64,000 nt of DNA from a virus, in IMG/VR virus record IMGVR_UViG_3300045988_113203, positions 1 to 64,000 of that record; one strand, written 5' to 3'. The first letter of the stretch is position 1. Each line of letters begins with the position of its first letter. The notes below the pieces were generated by a model. That model did not search any database. It had not been told where the DNA came from and saw only the letters and a list, made by a program, of their open reading frames with translations. The translations under genes were made by a program, and so were the position numbers. Positions 3,773-48,560 of the stretch are shown in pieces.

Positions 3773-4046
3773 TAAGCTACGCAAAATGGCTAAGACTACT
3801 CCAGGTCTGATAGTGGACGAGGCACAAAACATGATGCGTGTATCGCTATACGATAATGGGGAACTTAAGAAGGTGGTAGTGGTAATGAAATGCGATTCTT
3901 TTTTACAGTCAAAAAGTAACATAGAAAAGATAATGTTATTATCATCTTCTATAGAAGATAGAAAAAACAAAGAAAAAAATAAAACAAAATCAGAAAATGA
4001 ACAGAATAACAAAAATAAGAGAAGAAATAGGAGGAAAACAGGTTGA
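3753..4046 (+). CDS. Hypothetical protein with a K/N-rich basic tail (97 aa)
   Basis: ORF. Overlaps the following gene by about 50 nt. Start uncertain. Confidence 0.35.
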   Translation: MERPEYNKLRKMAKTTPGLIVDEAQNMMRVSLYDNGELKKVVVVMKCDSFLQSKSNIEKIMLLSSSIEDRKNKEKNKTKSENEQNNKNKRRNRRKTG

Positions 4047-4380
4047 TTTAACCTTTTACGGGCGCTTTTGCAGCCTTATCGAAGGTGATAGAAAGATAAT
4101 ACTAAAGGCAATAAAAAACGGTCGTAAGAAGGGCGTAATCGGAGCCATTCAACCTGGGAGACATGACAGAATTTGGACCACATGGTCTATTGCTTTTGAT
4201 GATCTGAAGGTAGGGGATACAGTAGAGTTCACTACATCCGGAAAATATAATCCCGGATTTCATACTACGGAAACGTATGTAGGATGTGTAGAATGGATAA
4301 AAGGATCGGAATGTGCGATAAAAACCGGCAATGGAATGGCGGTAGTATTAATTAAACACGTGGAAAGGGTAGTGAAATGA
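3997..4380 (+). CDS. Hypothetical protein (127 aa)
   Basis: ORF. Confidence 0.5.
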   Translation: MNRITKIREEIGGKQVDLTFYGRFCSLIEGDRKIILKAIKNGRKKGVIGAIQPGRHDRIWTTWSIAFDDLKVGDTVEFTTSGKYNPGFHTTETYVGCVEWIKGSECAIKTGNGMAVVLIKHVERVVK

Positions 4381-4661
4381 TGGGGTTGAGAGAATTTGTG
4401 GAACTTTTTGACAAGAATGAAGTAAAGAATTTGTTTAATGCATTGTCTTTATGTATAGAATACGTAAGGATAGATTTGCATGTATTTAATATAGGTGCCT
4501 ATGTTACGTGCCTGTACAGTAATGATCTTGAATCGCTTTCACAGACAGAAGGTTGTAATGTGAATATGATAATAGAGGTACCACACTTATTCGAAGCATT
4601 CATGGAATACGCTTCACCGGAAATGAAGTTGTATTACGAAAAACTAACAGAGACAGTATAA
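4377..4661 (+). CDS. Hypothetical protein (94 aa)
   Basis: ORF with an ATGA overlap. Confidence 0.5.
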   Translation: MMGLREFVELFDKNEVKNLFNALSLCIEYVRIDLHVFNIGAYVTCLYSNDLESLSQTEGCNVNMIIEVPHLFEAFMEYASPEMKLYYEKLTETV

Positions 4662-4662
4662 T

Positions 4663-5136
4663 ATGAAAGAGGAAGTAGAACGGATAAAGAAGTTGGTTGG
4701 CATAGATCATAATAGATGGGAGCAGCCTTGTACATGTGATAAATGCAAGAACATGTGTGAGGTTCCTTGTATTGGTACGCCAAAAGACATAGAAGCTATC
4801 ATAGATGCCGGATACGCTGACAGATTAAAAGAAACAATGTGGATGGTAGGGTATCTTGCAGTGAAAGAAAAACCAATAGCGATGATCCAGCCAACAGTGA
4901 AAGACGGGTGGTGCGCATTCCGCCGGCCGGACGGTCTATGCGAGCTGCATGACCGTGGACTGAAGCCGACCGAAGGAGTTCTGGCTTCTTGTAAGATGAT
5001 TGAAGAAGACAATATTCCAACATATGAAACGTCTGTACTTAGAGCAGTAGCTCATGAGTGGGTTAAGGTGGAGAACTTCGAAAATGTAATGAAGGTCGTT
5101 TTTAAATTTTTGCATGAAAATGAACGTGGAAAATAA
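4663..5136 (+). CDS. Hypothetical Cys-rich protein (157 aa). Contains a GC-rich island at about 4900-4960.
   Basis: ORF with multiple Cys residues (possible metal-binding). Confidence 0.55.
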   Translation: MKEEVERIKKLVGIDHNRWEQPCTCDKCKNMCEVPCIGTPKDIEAIIDAGYADRLKETMWMVGYLAVKEKPIAMIQPTVKDGWCAFRRPDGLCELHDRGLKPTEGVLASCKMIEEDNIPTYETSVLRAVAHEWVKVENFENVMKVVFKFLHENERGK

Positions 5137-5524
5137 ATTAGATAAAGTGGTTAAGATCCTAAAAGAAAAAGGATTTGTAGTATATAGAAAGGGTGGGAAA
5201 GAGCCAGGTGTGTTTTACGCTAAAGAAGGTGACAGTCGAATAGGGTTCGTTTATCCTAATAACGGATATATATATGACAGAATAAAAATGTGGTCTTTTT
5301 CAAGAATGTACAAACCACATAAGAAAACCGGATCTTCGTGCTTAATGTGTGTCAGCGACGAATTTACGATAGAGAATGCGATTAAGAACATAGAGGATAG
5401 ACTGTGGGTAAATTGCATAAAAGACGGTAGCAGAAAACGACCAGAAGAATATAAAAATATAAGAGAATTTGTTGGTAGCTTCACTAAATTCTACAGCTCT
5501 GTAGAATTAGTTGAAGTTAAGTAG
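5114..5524 (+). CDS. Hypothetical protein (136 aa)
   Basis: ORF. Confidence 0.5.
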   Translation: MKMNVENKLDKVVKILKEKGFVVYRKGGKEPGVFYAKEGDSRIGFVYPNNGYIYDRIKMWSFSRMYKPHKKTGSSCLMCVSDEFTIENAIKNIEDRLWVNCIKDGSRKRPEEYKNIREFVGSFTKFYSSVELVEVK

Positions 5525-6476: not shown

Positions 6477-6651
6477 GAAAGATTATGAGAAGTATCTTAA
6501 CTCCATATCTCCAGATAGAGACGATGAAGCATGGATCATTGGAGGAAAGAACAGGTATTGCGGTAGAGAGAATTATGGTACTATGATCAAAAGGTATGAT
6601 CCTATTGGTTTTAACGTAGGGTACAGGGAGTGGGCAGAACAGCCAGAGTAA
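6463..6651 (+). CDS. Hypothetical protein (62 aa)
   Basis: ORF, followed by a GC-rich hairpin element. Confidence 0.45.
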   Translation: MGKSRKDYEKYLNSISPDRDDEAWIIGGKNRYCGRENYGTMIKRYDPIGFNVGYREWAEQPE

Positions 6652-6753
6652 GGCGGCGCCTGCCCTGCCATGAGGTCAGCCTGGCTGTCTGTGGCCAGGA
6701 CCGTACATTAGTCAGATAGTGAACGACGAAAACAATACAAATGTTTGTTAATT

Positions 6754-8822: not shown

Positions 8823-9215
8823 ATGAAAACACAAGAAGAATATGCACTTGAAATTGACGAAATAGTTCGCCGGGATGTGGAGAGTCGCCAGAGCGACTGG
8901 TTTAAAATCGACAAGGAGATATTTATGCAGCCAGAGAATAAGAACAAGGCATTTATTTTGGGAACCCGGAAGACCGGATGTGATTTAATAATACTGGGTG
9001 GCACTAATTGTGATGAAGGTAGTATGGATTGGCTTTTTGGGAGTCTTGGCAATGAAAATTTCTATGTATGTAAGCCGCTATCTTTCTATAAATCACGACA
9101 AGAAATCCAGAAAGTAAATCCGCTTTATGCTTTCAAGGTGGCCACTGCTTATTTTAGAGAACAAGGGAAGGTTCCGGTATTTGAAGATAGTAACTGTAGA
9201 TTAATAAAACTATGA
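8823..9215 (+). CDS. Hypothetical protein (130 aa)
   Basis: ORF. Confidence 0.5.
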   Translation: MKTQEEYALEIDEIVRRDVESRQSDWFKIDKEIFMQPENKNKAFILGTRKTGCDLIILGGTNCDEGSMDWLFGSLGNENFYVCKPLSFYKSRQEIQKVNPLYAFKVATAYFREQGKVPVFEDSNCRLIKL

Positions 9216-15065: not shown

Positions 15066-15863
15066 ATGATAACATCAGTAAAAATAAAAGACAATACAAA
15101 AACTCCATTTGAATATGTTTCGGATATAGAAGCATTTGAAAATGGCAGAGAATTTATTTTCAAGCCAGGAGTGAATGTGATTATAGGGAAAAACGGTAGT
15201 GGAAAATCAACCTTGCTTAACATCATATCAATGTATGCGTTATGCGAGAAGTCCATGTGCTCTGAAATACCGATCGAGGCACTGGATTTTCCACCTATAT
15301 TTGATGATGATGACAAGGTTCTTGATGGGATTGACATATCATCCGATTATGCAGGGAAAGTATTCCGTTTATTGCCATCGGCGGAGATGAATCGAGATAG
15401 CGTATTGAAAAATATCAGCAATTTCGATTTGTATGTGAATAATATTCGAAGATCTTATGGAGAGAAAGTGGTGTTATCATTGGAATCACTTTTCAATTTA
15501 ATGTTCGGTCAAAAGGATTATACGTTTCCAATACAAGATCTTGTAGAATACAAGAAAAAATCAAATGCGTTTTGGATTAAAAGAATTGATAACCTGTTGA
15601 AGTATTATAAAAGAAACCGCATAACATTAACAGAAAGCAGTTTTGAATACACGGTTCTCATGGATGAGCCAGACAGGAATCTTGACATTGACAATATAAT
15701 GCAAATTTATAATGTATTGTCATTCCATAAACCACAAACGCAAATTATAGCCATAGTACACAATCCGGCATTGATTTACAAGTTAAGCAAATTAGATTGT
15801 GTAAACTTTATAGAGATGACAGAAGGGTATCTTAATAAAACTTGTACATTTGTGTCCAACTAA
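15066..15863 (+). CDS. ABC-type ATPase. Walker A is GKNGSGKST, the signature-like motif is SYGEKVVLSL, Walker B is VLMDEPDRNLD and the H-loop is IVHN.
   Basis: The motifs are read directly from the translation. Shine-Dalgarno AAAGGA followed by ATG. Confidence 0.65.
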   Translation: MITSVKIKDNTKTPFEYVSDIEAFENGREFIFKPGVNVIIGKNGSGKSTLLNIISMYALCEKSMCSEIPIEALDFPPIFDDDDKVLDGIDISSDYAGKVFRLLPSAEMNRDSVLKNISNFDLYVNNIRRSYGEKVVLSLESLFNLMFGQKDYTFPIQDLVEYKKKSNAFWIKRIDNLLKYYKRNRITLTESSFEYTVLMDEPDRNLDIDNIMQIYNVLSFHKPQTQIIAIVHNPALIYKLSKLDCVNFIEMTEGYLNKTCTFVSN

Positions 15864-15874
15864 TTAAAAGTGAT

Positions 15875-16189
15875 ATGAACTGGAAGAAATTTAAAGAGGA
15901 AAAACCTCCAGAGGGAGAAGAAGTGTTGGCTTATCATCCAAGTTGGATAGATGAAGATTTCAATCCAAGAGGTATAAGAATAGGGTTTTGGAATGGAGGG
16001 GACGATTTTAAATCAGCCCATTGGTGGGATTATCAAGATTGTTATATCACAATCTCTCATTGTGATTGTGATGATAATTCTCTTTTCAGTGATAGAATAA
16101 AAAACAGCATAGAGCCAGAGTTATGGATATCACTTGATGTTATTACAAATTACTTACCTAACATAAAACAAAATCACTTATCACAATGA
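15875..16189 (+). CDS. Hypothetical Trp-rich phage protein (about 104 aa; resembles a DUF551-like fold)
   Basis: ORF. Start moved to the internal ATG, MNWKKF. Confidence 0.4.
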   Translation: MNWKKFKEEKPPEGEEVLAYHPSWIDEDFNPRGIRIGFWNGGDDFKSAHWWDYQDCYITISHCDCDDNSLFSDRIKNSIEPELWISLDVITNYLPNIKQNHLSQ

Positions 16190-16285
16190 GCTATTTTATG
16201 ATTATTTAACCAACAAAATCACCATACTTTAGAAGGTGGATGAATTGGGTTGATTAATTTTGAATCAAAATTACAGATAAAAAAA

Positions 16286-17425
16286 ATGATTTCATACAAA
16301 TACAACATCTATCATTCAAAGAAAACGAAGTATCTAGACAAGATGCTTCGTGAATGTTGTTTTGTATGGAATCATGCTTTAGCTCTACAACGTAGGTATT
16401 ACAAACTGTTTGGAAAATATATATCAATTGGTAAGATGAAGAAGCATTTTGCCAAAAGAATTAAAAGAAACTTGCTTCATTCCCAAACAACACAAGAAAT
16501 ACTTGAACGTCTTGATGAATCTTATAATCGTTTCTTCAAGAAATTGGCTAAACGACCTCCTAAGTTTAAATCACCGGAGAAATTCAACTCTTTTGTTTTC
16601 AAACAAGGAGGTTTTACCCTAAATGGTAATTGTCTAACAATTAACAAAGGAAAGAAACGATTTAGATTCTCATACAGTAGAGTCTACGAAGGTAATGTTA
16701 AACAAATTAGAATAGTTAGAGAAACCTGTTCACGTTTTAGTTTGATTATAGTTACAGACCATAATCATTCAAACTCCTATAGAAAGACACATGATGGTGC
16801 ATCTATCGGATTGGATTTTGGGCTGAAAACTTATCTGACTAAAAGCGATGGTAGCAAAATCGATTCTCCTCTATTCTTCAAACAATGTCAAAACAGGATT
16901 AGAAAACTAAACAAACGGTTTTCTAACGCAAAGAAAGGATCTAACAATAGAAGAAGGAGACTGTTTGAACTACAACAAACGTATCGTAAAATAAACGATC
17001 TTCGATCGGATTTTCAATGGAGATTAGCACACCAGTTATGCAAACAGTATGATTATATTTTCATTGAAGATCTAAACATTGAAGGAATGAAACGTTTGTG
17101 GGGAAAGAAAGTTTCCGATCTTAGCCATTCTTCTTTTATTGATAAGCTAATGTATGTTTCTTCAAAGTATGGAGTAACGATACACAAGATTGACAAATGG
17201 TATCCTTCTTCCAAAACTTGTGAATGTGGCTGCATTAATAAAGGACTGTCGTTACGCGACCGCACGTGGGTATGCCCCTCGTGCGGCGCAGTTAACGACC
17301 GTGATGTTCTTGCAGCCCGTAATATACTTCGGAAGGGCATTTCCGAATTGGAGAGCAAGAGTAATTCCAGCGATATTAATATCGGGGTTTCTTGCGTTTG
17401 CATCCAAGAATCCCATTTGCTTTAA
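16286..17425 (+). CDS. tnpB: TnpB (OMEGA RNA-guided RuvC-like nuclease). Motifs are RuvC-I IGLDFGLK, RuvC-II FIEDLN, zinc finger CECGC...CPSCG and RuvC-III RDVLAARNI.
   Basis: The N-terminal MISYKYNIY matches the typical TnpB start. All three RuvC motifs plus the CxxC...CxxC zinc finger are visible. Confidence 0.85.
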   Translation: MISYKYNIYHSKKTKYLDKMLRECCFVWNHALALQRRYYKLFGKYISIGKMKKHFAKRIKRNLLHSQTTQEILERLDESYNRFFKKLAKRPPKFKSPEKFNSFVFKQGGFTLNGNCLTINKGKKRFRFSYSRVYEGNVKQIRIVRETCSRFSLIIVTDHNHSNSYRKTHDGASIGLDFGLKTYLTKSDGSKIDSPLFFKQCQNRIRKLNKRFSNAKKGSNNRRRRLFELQQTYRKINDLRSDFQWRLAHQLCKQYDYIFIEDLNIEGMKRLWGKKVSDLSHSSFIDKLMYVSSKYGVTIHKIDKWYPSSKTCECGCINKGLSLRDRTWVCPSCGAVNDRDVLAARNILRKGISELESKSNSSDINIGVSCVCIQESHLL

Positions 17426-17620
17426 CGATGGGAGTATGTCAATGTGTTTCTCCCTAAGAAATCAACAATAGGATCAAAGAATCCAATTATGGGTATATTG
17501 GAAGAGAACAGAACTTTTATATCCAGCCGTCCAGGATGTATTTTATGCAGATTAGATGAAATGGAATCATGGGCTTATTTGGATGATCTATTACCTTAGG
17601 TAATTATATACTCAATTTTA
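17426..17620 (+). ncRNA. Putative omega-RNA (reRNA) scaffold region overlapping and following the tnpB 3' end
   Basis: By analogy with IS200/605 TnpB systems. The region is a 200-nt noncoding stretch. No covariance model was run. Confidence 0.3.
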
Positions 17621-17632
17621 AAAGTTAGAATT

Positions 17633-17881
17633 ATGAAAAAAGATTTAACAGACAAAGAAAAAGAGGAAAGAATGAATTACCTTACCATTCATAAATGTAA
17701 AAACGAGGATGAACGTAAAGAGTTAAAAGAATTATGTGATTGGTATTTTAAGGATACTCCTACATTAACTATGTCTTTTTCTTTAACAGAAGAAGATTTT
17801 CGGGTAACAATGGAAAGGGACGTGGAGTTGTCGGAGGTAGCCAGAGCGGTAAAGAATCAACACCATAAGAAGAAAATTTGA
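17633..17881 (+). CDS. Hypothetical protein (82 aa)
   Basis: ORF. Confidence 0.45.
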   Translation: MKKDLTDKEKEERMNYLTIHKCKNEDERKELKELCDWYFKDTPTLTMSFSLTEEDFRVTMERDVELSEVARAVKNQHHKKKI

Positions 17882-17887
17882 AAGGTT

Positions 17888-18091
17888 ATGACCGACAGAG
17901 AACTTCTTGAAGAAAACAATAAGATGTTAAAGGAAATTCTAAGTTTTGTGAGAAAAGTTGATTCTGCTGAATACAGGGATCATCAAGACTTTATGGAATT
18001 TCTTAGAAATGTGGCAGCCGATATATGGGTAGAATATACGGAGCCTGAACAAAGAGGTAGATTGTTTAATTTAATAAATAAAAAGAAATGA
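17888..18091 (+). CDS. Hypothetical protein (67 aa)
   Basis: ORF. Confidence 0.45.
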   Translation: MTDRELLEENNKMLKEILSFVRKVDSAEYRDHQDFMEFLRNVAADIWVEYTEPEQRGRLFNLINKKK

Positions 18092-18753
18092 AAACAGTTT
18101 TTGATTTAAGCAGAGATGAGATTGTGGCATTGACAGACGAAGAGATAAGTCTGTATATAGACAAAGAGCTTGCTGGTAAAGGTATTCCAATTGAAGCTAA
18201 AAACTGGAATATAAAGAACGAAAAAGAAGTCGTGTATCCAAGAACTGGAGTTCCAGTATTTATGTTAAAAGATATTGGCATCGGTTTTAGAACCGTAGAA
18301 GGTGCAACTGAGGTGGCTAATTTGCTTGTTAAATATAATGCATTTAAAATAGAATCAAGGTTTCTGACAGGATCGTATGAACAGTTTTGGATCATAAAAG
18401 AAAGTGTTTGCCCGGCTATTAAAGGGGAAGCGGGGTATAGCAAAGAAGAGTTTGATAAGGTAAACAAGGAAAGCAAAGATCCAGAATTGGAAAGTATAAA
18501 TTCCTTCAATGATACTGTGAAAAAAGCCAATGAAATTAAAGACAGGGTGTTGAAATACGTGTACAACATAAAACAAGAGCGTTCATATAACAATGACCTG
18601 GTTGGTATCTTTGAAAGGTATAAAGATATAGCAGACGGTGATATGGAGGTAGCTATGAATTTTATTAAGGAGGCCTATCCATTCAATGAAGAAACAGAAT
18701 CGTTTATCAGGAAAAAGTTTGACATGCCTATGCCGGACGAATCAAAAGAGTAG
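18088..18753 (+). CDS. Hypothetical protein (221 aa)
   Basis: ORF with an ATGA overlap. Confidence 0.55.
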   Translation: MKTVFDLSRDEIVALTDEEISLYIDKELAGKGIPIEAKNWNIKNEKEVVYPRTGVPVFMLKDIGIGFRTVEGATEVANLLVKYNAFKIESRFLTGSYEQFWIIKESVCPAIKGEAGYSKEEFDKVNKESKDPELESINSFNDTVKKANEIKDRVLKYVYNIKQERSYNNDLVGIFERYKDIADGDMEVAMNFIKEAYPFNEETESFIRKKFDMPMPDESKE

Positions 18754-20318: not shown

Positions 20319-20924
20319 ATGAAAACAAATAAAGTATTAAAGATATTACAAATCACAAGACCCACTTTGACTAAATATGTCAAAGTGGGTAAAATCAGAG
20401 TAATCACAAAACCGAATGGTTTTTATGATTACAACGAAGATGATGTATATTCACTCGCTGGTTATTCAACAAGAAGGTTGACGGTTGCGTACTCAAGAGT
20501 TTCTACAAACAAGCAAAAGAAAGACCTTGAAAACCAAGAAAAATCAATCGTATCTTATTGTAATAACAATGGGATAAGAGTTGATAAATCATACAAAGAT
20601 ATTGCAAGTGGAATGAACTTCGATAGGAAGCAGTTCCTTGAAATGTTTAACGATATCATAGATAGAAAAATACAGACTGTTTATATAACATATAAGGATA
20701 GGTTGTCAAGAATTTCTTTTGATCTGTTTGAAAAACTTTTCAGGGAGTTTGGGTGTGAGATTATTGTAATAAACAATACGGAAGATAGAGAAACAAATGA
20801 ATCAGAGATATTTGGAGAAATTATTTCCATGCTTCATTGTTTTGCTATGAAAATGTACTCGAAAAGAAGAAAAAATAAACTTGAAATCGTAAGTAAGGAT
20901 TTAGAAAATGAGATTAGTCTATAA
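20319..20924 (+). CDS. tnpA: IS607-type TnpA serine recombinase. N-terminal MerR-like HTH (LKILQITRPTLTKYV) plus a resolvase catalytic domain with the active-site Ser in VAYSRVSTNKQ.
   Basis: Motifs read directly. The 201-aa size is typical of IS607 TnpA. Confidence 0.8.
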   Translation: MKTNKVLKILQITRPTLTKYVKVGKIRVITKPNGFYDYNEDDVYSLAGYSTRRLTVAYSRVSTNKQKKDLENQEKSIVSYCNNNGIRVDKSYKDIASGMNFDRKQFLEMFNDIIDRKIQTVYITYKDRLSRISFDLFEKLFREFGCEIIVINNTEDRETNESEIFGEIISMLHCFAMKMYSKRRKNKLEIVSKDLENEISL

Positions 20925-22140
20925 GTTCAACATAGGGAAGAATGAAGAGATATCGAAGCTGTGCAAGGTTAGCAACAACCTGTATAACCAAGCTTTGTAT
21001 GTCTTTCGGGAAACATTGAAAAATGAATCCAAATGGCTTTCCTATTTTGAACTTGATAAAATCTTGAAGGATACAAGAAACTTGGATGGAGAAATAAATT
21101 ACAGATTACTGAAGGCTCAATGTTCTCAACAGGTACTTAAACTACTTGATAAGAATATAAAAAGCTATTACGAATCTGTTCGGGATTATAAGAGGCATCC
21201 AAATAAGTATAAGGAAAAACCGGGTCTTCCTAAATATAGAAAAAGAGGTTCCGAGTTTAACATGTATTATACGAATCAAAATTGTAGAATAAGGAATGGT
21301 AAAATAATTCTATCAAAGGAACTTTCGATAGATATTCCTCAATATGAAAAGTATTCTTACTTGCTTGAAAATTTCAAACAAATCAGAATATTACCTAATC
21401 ACATAGGATACAGGATTGAAGTTATCTATGAGGTGGAAGATGTTGAAATCCCTAAAAGGAAGGAAGAGAAAATAGCTTCCATTGATTTAGGAATAGACAA
21501 TCTGGCGACTATTGTCAGTGAGGATTTTACTATCATTTTTAGTGGTAAATTTGTTAAATCACACAATCAATTATTTAATAAAACACTTGCTAAATTAAAT
21601 AGCATAAAGGATTTACAAAAGATAAAAGGAACAACAAAACGAATAAAGAAATTATATTATGATAGAGAACAGTACATAGAAGATGTCTTTCATAAAATCA
21701 GTAGAAAGATAGTTGATTTACTTATCGATTCCAAGATAACAAAATTAGTTGTAGGTTATAATAAGGGATGGAAAACTGGAGTAAACATGGGTAAAAGGAA
21801 TAACCAGAAGTTTACACAAATCCCTTTTGCGAGATTGGTTAGTTACTTAGAATATAAATGTGAATTAGCTGGTATTGAAATAGTTATTCATGAAGAGTCA
21901 TATACTTCAAAATGTGATTTTATTGCATTTGAGAAGATAGGAAAACATGAAAACTATTTAGGAAAGAGGAAGAAACGAGGATTATTTCAATCTTCAGTAG
22001 GAAAACTCATAAATGCAGACGTAAATGGAGCATTAAACATTATGAGAAAAGTAGTCGGTGATTCCTGTGAATCAATTCGTAGGATAATCGATAGAGGGTT
22101 ATTGTTTAACCCGGTAAGGATTACGAATGTATTTTGCTAA
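20908..22140 (+). CDS. tnpB: TnpB-family protein. RuvC-I is IASIDLGIDNLA, RuvC-II is HEESYTSK and RuvC-III is INADVNGALNI. The CxxC...CxxC zinc finger is missing and replaced by GKRKKRGLFQSS.
   Basis: The N-terminal MRLVYKFNIG is TnpB-like. All three RuvC acidic residues are present. No Cys pair lies between RuvC-II and RuvC-III. Confidence 0.8.
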   Translation: MRLVYKFNIGKNEEISKLCKVSNNLYNQALYVFRETLKNESKWLSYFELDKILKDTRNLDGEINYRLLKAQCSQQVLKLLDKNIKSYYESVRDYKRHPNKYKEKPGLPKYRKRGSEFNMYYTNQNCRIRNGKIILSKELSIDIPQYEKYSYLLENFKQIRILPNHIGYRIEVIYEVEDVEIPKRKEEKIASIDLGIDNLATIVSEDFTIIFSGKFVKSHNQLFNKTLAKLNSIKDLQKIKGTTKRIKKLYYDREQYIEDVFHKISRKIVDLLIDSKITKLVVGYNKGWKTGVNMGKRNNQKFTQIPFARLVSYLEYKCELAGIEIVIHEESYTSKCDFIAFEKIGKHENYLGKRKKRGLFQSSVGKLINADVNGALNIMRKVVGDSCESIRRIIDRGLLFNPVRITNVFC

Positions 22141-33553: not shown

Positions 33554-33864
33554 AAGAAGCATTGATAGCAGGAGCAGCGGTCTTTTTATTATCATACTTG
33601 TTTATAACGACTCTTATAAAAATAAGCAGGGCAATAGATCGGTATAAGATGAAGAAGAAGACCGACAAAATAAAAGTCGGTCAAAGATACGAATACGAAG
33701 GCTACTTCATGGATCCATTTGAAAGAGGCAAGCATGTGATTAAGATATTAGAAATAAAGGAAGGGTTCGCTCTGTACGAGTATGGAAAAAGCCCAAGTTT
33801 ATTATTTTCTATGGAGCTTGAAGATATTGTTAAAAGATATGTTTTAATTACTGATATAAAATAA
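33550..33864 (+). CDS. Hypothetical membrane-anchored protein (104 aa)
   Basis: N-terminal hydrophobic helix. Confidence 0.5.
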   Translation: MKEALIAGAAVFLLSYLFITTLIKISRAIDRYKMKKKTDKIKVGQRYEYEGYFMDPFERGKHVIKILEIKEGFALYEYGKSPSLLFSMELEDIVKRYVLITDIK

Positions 33865-47372: not shown

Positions 47373-48560
47373 TCACAAAGTATTTACTCTAATTGGATTA
47401 AACACAAATCCACTATCGATTATCTTTCCAATAAAAGAATCACCGATTACTTTTCTTGCTATTCCAATTGCTCCATTAATATCTGCATTGATCAGCTCCC
47501 CAATAGAACTTTGAAACAATCCGCGTTTCTTCCTTCTACCTAAGTAGGATTCCTGTTTCTTTAGAGGTTCAAAAGCGAGATGATCGATCTTTGATGTATA
47601 GGATTCTTCATGAACAATCACGTTGATTCCTAAAAACTTCGCTTTGTAAACAATCTTATCTATTAACTTAGAATGAGGGATAGAAACGAAATGTTGGTTG
47701 TTTCGTTTGCCAATATTTATTTTGTTTTTCCATTCTTTGTTTAATCCGATGATGATTGTTCCTATGTCGTTTGATCTACAGAAGTTGACAATATATCTGC
47801 TTATCTTATGCAACTTGTCTTCTATCCAACAATTTCTAAACAAAGTAATTTTTCTTATTCTATTTGAAGTTCCCTTATTACCAACAAAAGACATCAACTT
47901 AGCTTTCTTCTTATTGTACCACTGATTTACTGATTTCAAAACTCGTCCGTTTATAATGAAAGAATTAACTACATTACTAATACATGAACATAAATTATTC
48001 AATCCTAAATCAATCGAAAGAAAATTGTCTTTATCTAAACCAAGATCAGTTTCCTTTCTTTCATAAATTACCTCTACTACATAACAGGTAGCTTGAGGTA
48101 TGATTCTAACTTGTTTTAATTCGTCTTTATTTATATTCGTTTTGATAGGTTTGATTATATCTTTGACAAAATGAATATGATTATCATCTTTTACCCTGCA
48201 ATCACAGTTGGTAAAAACAACCATGTTTTGTTTCTTACCTCGTTTGTATGAAGGTAGATGAGGACGATGATTACCATATTTTGAAGGATTCTTTTCAAAA
48301 TCTTTCTTTAATCTCATCCAGGATTTTATGTTTTTAAATACCTGTTTAATCACCTGCTGTGAAACATGATTAGGTAAATTCCTGAAATCAAATTGGTTTT
48401 CTTTGCAAAGTTTGTTTGATAAATCAAATTCCTTTAAGTAGTTACCAGAAAAGACTCCTTGACGAATGTTGTAAAGAACATAATTGTACAACAAACCGGA
48501 TTTGAGGCAAATATCCTCAAACCGGTTGTCTTTAACTATATGTCTTTCAACAAGTTTCAT
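47373..48560 (-). CDS. tnpB: TnpB-family protein (395 aa), a zinc-finger-less paralog of the gene at 20908-22140. RuvC-I is LSIDLGLNNL, RuvC-II is HEESYTSK and RuvC-III is INADINGAIGI.
   Basis: The C-terminal half is near-identical in pattern to the IS607 tnpB (GRRKKRGLFQSSIGELINAD, NPIRVN). No adjacent transposase. Only 17 bp and 73 bp separate it from the neighbouring genes. Confidence 0.8.
   Translation of the reverse strand: MKLVERHIVKDNRFEDICLKSGLLYNYVLYNIRQGVFSGNYLKEFDLSNKLCKENQFDFRNLPNHVSQQVIKQVFKNIKSWMRLKKDFEKNPSKYGNHRPHLPSYKRGKKQNMVVFTNCDCRVKDDNHIHFVKDIIKPIKTNINKDELKQVRIIPQATCYVVEVIYERKETDLGLDKDNFLSIDLGLNNLCSCISNVVNSFIINGRVLKSVNQWYNKKKAKLMSFVGNKGTSNRIRKITLFRNCWIEDKLHKISRYIVNFCRSNDIGTIIIGLNKEWKNKINIGKRNNQHFVSIPHSKLIDKIVYKAKFLGINVIVHEESYTSKIDHLAFEPLKKQESYLGRRKKRGLFQSSIGELINADINGAIGIARKVIGDSFIGKIIDSGFVFNPIRVNTL

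Follow-up and report, generated by a model that had tools for sequence, protein, structure and literature searches.

The closest described relatives of the locus analysed here are transposons of the IS200/IS605 family. ISDra2 of Deinococcus radiodurans, whose transposon-adjacent motif (TAM) is TTGAT, encodes a TnpB that works with an omega-RNA (reRNA). IS608, like IS605 an element of Helicobacter pylori with a Y1 HUH transposase (TnpA), inserts 3' of a TTAC-type tetranucleotide, has TCAA as its right end and carries imperfect subterminal hairpins at both ends. Here we analyse an element of this kind in a 64,000-nt stretch of viral DNA (positions 1 to 64,000 of IMG/VR record IMGVR_UViG_3300045988_113203; hereafter the window). 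We read positions 16200-17442, with a probability of roughly 0.78, as a non-autonomous IS200/IS605 TnpB transposon residing in an epsilon crAss-like phage of the human gut, with a predicted omega-RNA scaffold at 17328-17442 and a predicted capacity for RNA-guided homing into, or cutting of, sibling phages.

In bacterial chromosomes, a flank-guided ribonucleoprotein of IS605-family TnpB restores the element after excision, according to the account of Karvelis 2021 and Meers 2023 given in PMC13565253. The same paper treats "non-restorative homing" of IS605-type elements into co-infecting phages as theoretical, and mentions TnpB-dependent, TnpA-independent spread as reported for plasmids only. 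TnpB "transposases" have been noted in some Epsilonunovirus genomes, in a study that does not describe their ends, TAM, guide RNA, autonomous partners or population dynamics (PMC11054128). What is new here is that the ends, TAM (TTAY), omega-RNA scaffold and guide of one crAss-like-phage TnpB family are defined, as far as sequence alone can define them. Dozens of sites differ in their occupancy by this family, within a virus group that ranks among the most abundant of the human gut. It may thus offer a natural system in which to study "non-restorative" transposon homing between co-infecting phages, and to ask whether RNA-guided nucleases shape phage mosaicism. With a compact TnpB (379 aa), a scaffold of ~115 nt and a 4-nt T-rich TAM, it is also a possible candidate for genome editing. 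The parts of the element and its immediate surroundings are as follows.

16196-16199, + strand: TTAT, TAM and transposase target tetranucleotide; abuts the left end and lies outside the element.
16200-17442, + strand: whole element, a non-autonomous (tnpA-less) IS200/IS605-family TnpB transposon of 1243 bp, delimited by >90 other copies in differing flanks and by exact empty sites.
16200-16285, + strand: left end (LE), beginning GATTATTTAACC, with a subterminal hairpin at 16220-16238 (CACC-N11-GGTG) followed by the tnpB 5' leader; conserved among copies with unrelated left flanks.
16286-17425, + strand: tnpB coding sequence, 379 aa; RuvC D177/E261/D340, zinc finger C312-x-C314...C330-x-x-C333, stop codon at 17423-17425.
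17328-17442, + strand: predicted omega-RNA scaffold, doubling as the right end (RE); RNAalifold gives five helices from 81 distinct sequences; overlaps tnpB at its 3' end.
17411-17442, + strand: RE subterminal hairpin (17411-17433) and terminus GTATGTCAA, ending TCAA; presumed site of TnpA recognition and cleavage; hairpin arms covary.
17443-17458, + strand: predicted guide segment TGTGTTTCTCCCTAAG, the first bases after the RE; phage flank DNA, with read-through transcription predicted.
17444-17599, + strand: what insertion and deletion have left of a conserved phage gene of 88 aa, namely its last 51 codons (3' remnant); outside the element; translation identical to crAssE-Sib, DNA 94%.

Like ISDra2 (8EXA, 8H1J, 8BF8), the window element shows the same domain order over ~340 TnpB residues with an aligned catalytic triad, a scaffold at the right end that overlaps the 3' end of tnpB, a predicted guide taken from flanking DNA and a TAM equal to the transposon's target motif. 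It differs from ISDra2 in its protein (identity of only ~25-30%, first zinc knuckle CxC), in an unrelated scaffold sequence and in the family TAM, TTAY as against TTGAT. It also resides, without tnpA, on a lytic-type crAss-like phage rather than on a bacterial chromosome. The TTAC-type target, the lack of target duplication, the TCAA right terminus and the subterminal hairpins at both ends recall IS608 and IS605, and autonomous relatives with divergent tnpA and tnpB, as in IS605, occur in sibling phages. Unlike IS608, however, the window copy has no tnpA, uses TTAT where most autonomous relatives use TTAC, and has no detectable DNA similarity to it. In having tnpB only, keeping both ends and depending on TnpA in trans, the element resembles IS1341-type solo-tnpB elements and derivatives like palindrome-associated or miniature inverted-repeat transposable elements (PATE/MITE). 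As with PATE/MITE-like derivatives, still shorter LE+RE forms occur in the same population, although, in contrast to such end pairs, the short forms here keep precisely the omega-RNA scaffold behind the tnpB leader.

A second comparison is with the free-standing homing endonucleases of T-even phages (SegF, SegB, Mob) and with intron endonucleases by which phages exclude co-infecting ones. The predicted likeness would lie in cutting a sibling's nuclease-less allele and spreading together with flanking markers by recombinational repair (PMC13565253). The window element differs in its predicted recognition of targets by guide RNA and TAM, in separating self from non-self by the presence of the insertion rather than by protein-read polymorphisms, and in its RuvC fold, which is neither GIY-YIG nor HNH.

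On the + strand of the window, a single unbroken open reading frame (ORF) spans 16250-17425 when counted from the first TTG. Public TnpB homologues are 379 aa long and begin MISYKYNIY, and we therefore place the real tnpB start at the ATG at 16286. The product scores 237.3 bits over residues 4-350 with NCBIfam NF040570 (guided_TnpB, "RNA-guided endonuclease TnpB family"; cut-off 100), and exceeds the Pfam cut-offs for PF01385 (OrfB_IS605, 66.3) and PF07282 (Cas12f1-like_TNB, 68.9). With the narrower IS200_TnpB exception model it scores 208, below the cut-off of 425. Residues 11-352 align with the solved ISDra2 TnpB (8EXA/8H1J; E=6e-29), with D177 (GLDFG), E261 (FIEDLN) and D340 (the second D of NDRD) falling on ISDra2 D191, E278 and D361. 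This D/E/D triad is unchanged in 81/81 intact family members, as are C312, C314, C330 and C333. The third Cys of CECGC varies among family members, so the first zinc knuckle is CxC (C312-x-C314, CEC), and the second, C330-x-x-C333, is canonical. The 379-aa ORF is preserved in 81 and disrupted in 10 of 91 distinct full-length copies, and the ratio of nonsynonymous to synonymous divergence (dN/dS) relative to the window copy is 0.11 over codons 1-340. To all appearances, then, the window tnpB is a real and intact gene, and TnpB is evidently under purifying selection. Every feature of a TnpB/OMEGA nuclease that can be tested in sequence appears to be present in the window element, and TAM- and guide-dependent cleavage of double-stranded DNA by its TnpB would be expected from TnpB biology.

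The boundaries of the element emerge from copies that differ in their surroundings. At fetched loci with unrelated left flanks, the left end starts GATTATTTAACCAAC directly 3' of TTAT and continues into CCACC-N11-GGTGG, and TTAT directly precedes the left end in all window-type copies. The right end of copies always finishes in GTATGTCAA, and flanks diverge between copies immediately after GTCAA. No copy departs from the sequence GAGTATGTCAA, not even a 56%-identical relative found in a Cryptobacteroides metagenome-assembled genome (MAG). Similarity to that copy (L202) and to a 74%-identical copy (MT839900, L002) ends with GAGTATGTCAA, at 17442. Among annotated phages the nearest is the epsilon crAss-like phage crAssE-Sib (OR575929, 151 kb), from the human gut; homology to it ends near 16199-16204 and picks up again at 17443. 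The window element has no terminal inverted repeats, and instead carries subterminal imperfect hairpins at both ends, as expected of the IS200/IS605 family, with CTTTA in the loops of both by our reading of the sequence.

For 17/41 distinct insertions, exact empty sites were found in which the TTAT-ending left flank is joined straight to the right flank, with up to 100% identity over 90 nt. These counts are lower bounds, as fetched loci span only a few kb around each match. The empty sites indicate that insertion is precise, orientation-specific, 3' of TTAT and without target duplication. The four bases before the right flank in unoccupied genomes are TTAT in 22/43 cases and TTAC in 16/43 (38/43 together), and the background of the two in the window is 1.4% per position. 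The element appears from its sequence to be an IS200/IS605-family transposon with IS608-like ends (target TTAY, terminus TCAA) and an intact TnpB as its sole gene. A second type of left end, which has a fixed context and at first look passed for a static gene neighbourhood, proved to be the LE of TTAC-type, tnpA-deleted derivatives.

Profile search of the 72 ORFs of 95-260 aa in the 64-kb window found no Y1_Tnp, and tblastn of a TnpA from the family against the window gave no match. Eleven fetched loci do carry a Y1 HUH TnpA (PF01797, 135.5 bits) of 130-132 aa, divergent from a TnpB with the same right end (L002 at 359-757 on the - strand, L097, L130, L132, L133, L138, L144, L148, L166, L177 and L189). 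These autonomous IS605-like relatives are ~1.70 kb long, have a left end homologous to that of the window copy, and use TTAC as TAM in most cases and TTAT in L097 and L189. One of the TnpA-bearing contigs, L130, also holds the target of the window copy's guide. Given relatives with a Y1 TnpA and the same ends, and none in the window, we take the window element to be a tnpA-less derivative that can be mobilised in trans. The TnpA of a neighbouring IS607 element (see below) was considered as mobiliser and ruled out, the ends and target behaviour being of the Y1-type IS605 kind. Five further loci (L110, L115, L151, L154 and L161; for example L161 ~6500-6713) hold miniature elements of ~210 nt, located after TTAT, in which the LE and tnpB leader are fused exactly to the start of the scaffold and the whole tnpB ORF is deleted. 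These miniatures have the look of guide-RNA genes that stand on their own. One and the same phage population contains autonomous, tnpB-only and miniature forms.

A first-pass annotation of this stretch had already called an intact TnpB with its RuvC triad, an IS1341-like non-autonomous element among phage genes without partner transposase, and a TAM adjacent to the left end. These calls stand: we find 237 bits with guided_TnpB, D177/E261/D340 on the ISDra2 triad, no Y1 in the 64-kb window, and TTAT at 16196-16199. The zinc finger it described as CxxC...CxxC has the four Cys and the CxxC of the second knuckle, but the first knuckle is CxC (C312, C314).

How widespread and how mobile is the family? 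A protein-guided scan of IMG/VR returned 305 relatives, with two copies on several contigs; the best 80 of the 305 show 89-97% identity, on contigs that reach ~159 kb. Scanning with a right-end DNA pattern gave at least 120 matches. Thousands of member sequences make up the closest protein clusters, and almost all of them come from contigs of phage size. We counted 41 distinct insertions in epsilon crAss-like phages, and sequence comparison indicates a mobile family with many independent insertion sites in sibling phages of this group. In a collection of 185,579 reference genomes, we found no identical host-borne insertion sequence and one match only, L202 (JBGVNX010000030.1, Candidatus Cryptobacteroides MAG) at 4001-5152, with a 56%-identical TnpB, the GAGTATGTCAA terminus and compensatory changes in three helices. 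Neighbouring genes of L202 look phage-like, which hints at host range or a prophage relative.

Several smaller observations concern the same population. The window itself has an unoccupied site at 33738-33757 (- strand), TTAT plus target, reading CCTTTAT followed by TTCTAATATCTTAATC. The same TnpB element, at full length, occupies this site in other phage contigs (e.g. L033), and the first target base differs between the window and the occupied flank. Seven loci (L101, L135, L170, L172, L173, L190 and L255) hold 5'-truncated right-end remnants of 40-130 nt. Several such remnants sit at sites where other genomes hold a full-length element with the same right flank, so decay runs from the left and the RE-flank junction is kept. 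In L158, at ~9050-9152 (+ strand of the locus), two right ends lie head to head (TTGACATACTCCCA...TGGGAGTATGTCAA) and form a long palindrome.

We then examined the right end as a putative RNA. An alignment of the last 135 nt of 81 distinct copies gave an RNAalifold consensus made up of the following elements.

17328-17347, + strand: stem 1.
17348-17352 with 17403-17407, + strand: closing stem.
17355-17395, + strand: long two-part hairpin.
17411-17433, + strand: terminal hairpin.
After the terminal hairpin and up to 17442, + strand: 3' tail GUAUGUCAA, part of the right end.

Across the alignment, 97.3% of cells are standard-paired, and both sides change in 22/36 pairs, in 145 such cells. None of 500 shuffles reached any of the covariation measures, and sliding the partners by 1-3 columns left 38-55% paired. 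Synonymous divergence is 0.56 over codons 1-340 versus 0.14 over the scaffold-overlapping codons 341-379, a fourfold drop. As a single sequence, 17328-17442 folds with z=-3.0. The last 115 nt of the element thus appear to form a conserved five-helix RNA structure, mostly within the tnpB reading frame. The miniature elements are fused exactly at the start of stem 1, which places the start of the functional block, on its 5' side, near 17328.

The larger segment 17230-17442 also folds strongly (z=-4.6). Its upstream part, 17230-17327 (+ strand), is coding, comprises the CPSC zinc-knuckle region just upstream of the scaffold, and hardly differs between copies whose overall identity is only 74%. 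The strong fold of this part could mean that the omega-RNA extends further 5', or could come from protein constraint alone.

The DNA to the right of the element identifies the predicted target. crAssE-Sib matches the window at 97% over 15077-16204 and at 94% over 17443-17636, and between these two blocks holds 2.1 kb of other small genes and no TnpB. Window positions 17444-17599 translate to VFLPKKSTIGSK...LDDLLP followed by a stop codon, which is exactly residues 38-88 of an 88-aa crAssE-Sib protein (L001 6139-6405). The predicted guide, TGTGTTTCTCCCTAAG, occurs once in the window. Unoccupied copies of the site, TTAT followed by TGTGTTTCTCCCTAAGAA, are present in 67 IMG/VR contigs, always inside this same 88-aa gene. 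An exact-junction scan of IMG/VR for the window's RE-flank junction found it in no other contig, and hence the insertion allele is private or recent. The sole JGI metagenome match to the junction was a chance 22-mer in unrelated DNA and was discarded as another copy of the allele. The guide of this recent or private allele, as we read it, matches the wild-type allele of many sibling phages.

These features fit the following scheme, in which homing into and cutting of co-infecting siblings are inferred from what is established for TnpB and IS605 elements. A transcript running through tnpB and beyond 17442 would supply an omega-RNA with its scaffold at 17328-17442 and its guide at ~17443-17458. 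TnpB bound to this RNA would cut DNA in which TTAT is followed by TGTGTTTCTCCCTAAG, that is, the uninterrupted allele of the 88-aa gene, which 67 or more related phage genomes carry. The element's own genome would be immune because there GTCAA, not TTAT, precedes the target. During mixed infection, a sibling genome that has been cut would either disappear or be mended with the element-bearing genome as template, in which case it would gain the element along with the adjacent 1.5-3.2 kb deletion, amounting to homing without a transposase. To reach new TTAY sites, the element would rely on a Y1 TnpA provided in trans, either from autonomous copies or from the host.

Several results weigh against this scheme. 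In every relative showing both flanks, the left and right flanks of the window copy lie 1509-3187 bp apart with variable small genes between them; since they are never contiguous there, the window allele did not arise by a single one-step insertion. Nor did the IMG/VR junction scan find a copy at the right-hand site with the upstream gene intact. The TAM seen in genomes could equally reflect target choice by TnpA alone, its reading by the TnpB protein being predicted, and the conserved helices could in some measure act at the DNA level, as hairpins for TnpA, and not as RNA. The guide length of 16 nt is assumed from ISDra2. Rfam gave no match at gathering score for the whole window, and a permissive search (E<=10) over 15500-18500 gave no relevant match; the scaffold is accordingly not part of any curated RNA family. 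A scan for sigma-70 promoters and terminators over 16000-17800 showed no excess over shuffles, the sigma-70 model being uninformative for a Bacteroidota-type host. By our own reading only, the TAATTTTG motif at 16255-16262 resembles a Bacteroides -7 box.

The history of the site deserves closer description. Among relatives showing both flanks, none has a simple empty site joining the two flanks of the window copy. A one-step insertion was accordingly rejected, and on this reading of the sequences the insertion was coupled to the loss of 1.5-3.2 kb of phage DNA. Another insertion, in L027, has the same left junction as the window copy. Its right flank maps just ~120 bp downstream, at L001 4238, and unoccupied genomes show TTAT in front of it, so that the right junctions are nested, with that of the window at L001 6249. 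Cases of one left junction with differing right flanks recur among several other insertions, and some insertions have TTAT at the left junction, yet TTAC before the right flank in unoccupied genomes. The right junctions probably arose from TnpA-type chemistry, because each sits exactly at the TAM/target boundary and TnpB cuts far from the TAM. The non-contiguous flanks suggest either homologous recombination between two copies at different TTAY sites or TnpA-mediated deletion beside the right end, and the TTAT/TTAC chimeras favour recombination between copies. The left site with its native right flank would read TTTTAT followed by ATTAATGG.

Other explanations start from the same observations. 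The first-pass annotation had placed the omega-RNA in a 200-nt noncoding right end at 17426-17620, with the last ~16 nt before 17620 as guide. TnpB guide RNAs are indeed encoded at the right end of their elements, and 17426-17620 has no long ORF, but this placement is now hardly credible. All other copies diverge at 17442, only 17 nt past the stop codon, and the DNA beyond it (17443-17636) is 94% identical to an element-less phage and encodes the C-terminus of the 88-aa protein. Moreover, 17443-17620 folds no better than shuffles (z=-1.1, versus -3.0 for 17328-17442). The covarying scaffold instead lies at 17328-17442, mostly inside the tnpB frame, and the predicted guide is the ~16 nt directly after 17442 (TGTGTTTCTCCCTAAG). 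The element might also be a decaying, vertically inherited insertion sequence fragment whose TnpB and RNA no longer function. The window has no transposase, the flanks of the window copy are rearranged, and the family includes truncated RE remnants and 10/91 disrupted ORFs. Yet in the window copy the ORF is full-length, no catalytic residue or zinc ligand is missing, both ends are present and the scaffold is intact. The family shows a dN/dS of 0.11 and dozens of polymorphic sites with exact empty sites, and an insertion allele found in no other contig is recent rather than ancient. The first-pass annotation proposed to recognise a relic by the absence of any structured RNA or RNA-model hit, combined with the gene at the same position in all relatives. 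The lack of an Rfam hit agrees with part of this, but a structured RNA is present and the gene is absent at this position in every relative examined, and by that test the element is not a relic. We consider decay improbable.

A further question is what an active nuclease would be kept for. TnpB could be a domesticated phage weapon, retained mainly against competing sibling phages or host DNA, with upkeep of the transposon incidental. In at least 67 sibling genomes a conserved gene matches the guide and has the correct TAM beside it, there are three TnpB genes in the window, and phage homing nucleases are known to exclude co-infecting phages (PMC13565253). Against this, full transposon ends are retained, the family moves between many sites, guides merely mirror whichever flank follows the RE, and the element is patchy rather than fixed among relatives (PMC11054128). 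We therefore regard domestication as unlikely, with the caveat that exclusion and homing are indistinguishable at the sequence level and are not mutually exclusive. Some TnpB descendants have been exapted as regulators, and a nuclease-independent role, for example as an RNA-guided transcriptional repressor like TldR-type derivatives, could be imagined here. We give this almost no weight: the D/E/D triad is intact and unchanged in 81 copies, the element is mobile, and the guide derives from the flank rather than from a fixed promoter-matching sequence. Our preference for an RNA-guided, homing or sibling-cutting transposon can be carried one step further, in a form that is possible but which we would sooner doubt than assert. 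The IS605-type family of epsilon crAss-like phages might act as a natural RNA-guided gene drive between co-infecting viruses, in which the flank-derived guide of each copy would direct cutting of the uninterrupted allele in siblings and repair would bring in the element with linked deletions. If so, the variable gene modules of these phages would owe their borders to TnpB elements, which would also mark them. Nested junctions, as in the window and L027, would then be a route to new guides, and the miniatures would be guide genes that parasitise TnpB in trans.

The window contains two TnpB genes besides that at 16286-17425, three in total. They and their surroundings are as follows.

20319-22140, + strand: complete IS607-family element, a serine-recombinase TnpA overlapping a TnpB-like gene.
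20319-20924, + strand: IS607 serine-recombinase TnpA (NF033518, 174 bits, cut-off 110).
20908-22140, + strand: IS607-associated TnpB-like gene, 410 aa (guided_TnpB, 165 bits).
47373-48560, - strand: third TnpB-like gene, 395 aa (guided_TnpB, 148 bits), 42% identical to the IS607-associated TnpB.

No transposase was detected in the ORFs neighbouring the third TnpB-like gene. The IS607-associated TnpB is ~23% identical to the product of 16286-17425, and is without the zinc-finger cysteines and the usual RuvC-II I-x-E motif. The arrangement that defines IS607, a serine-recombinase TnpA beside tnpB, is absent from the element at 16200-17442. The IS607 element is placed between a NinG-like gene and a replication gene, and crAssE-Sib has no such insertion there.

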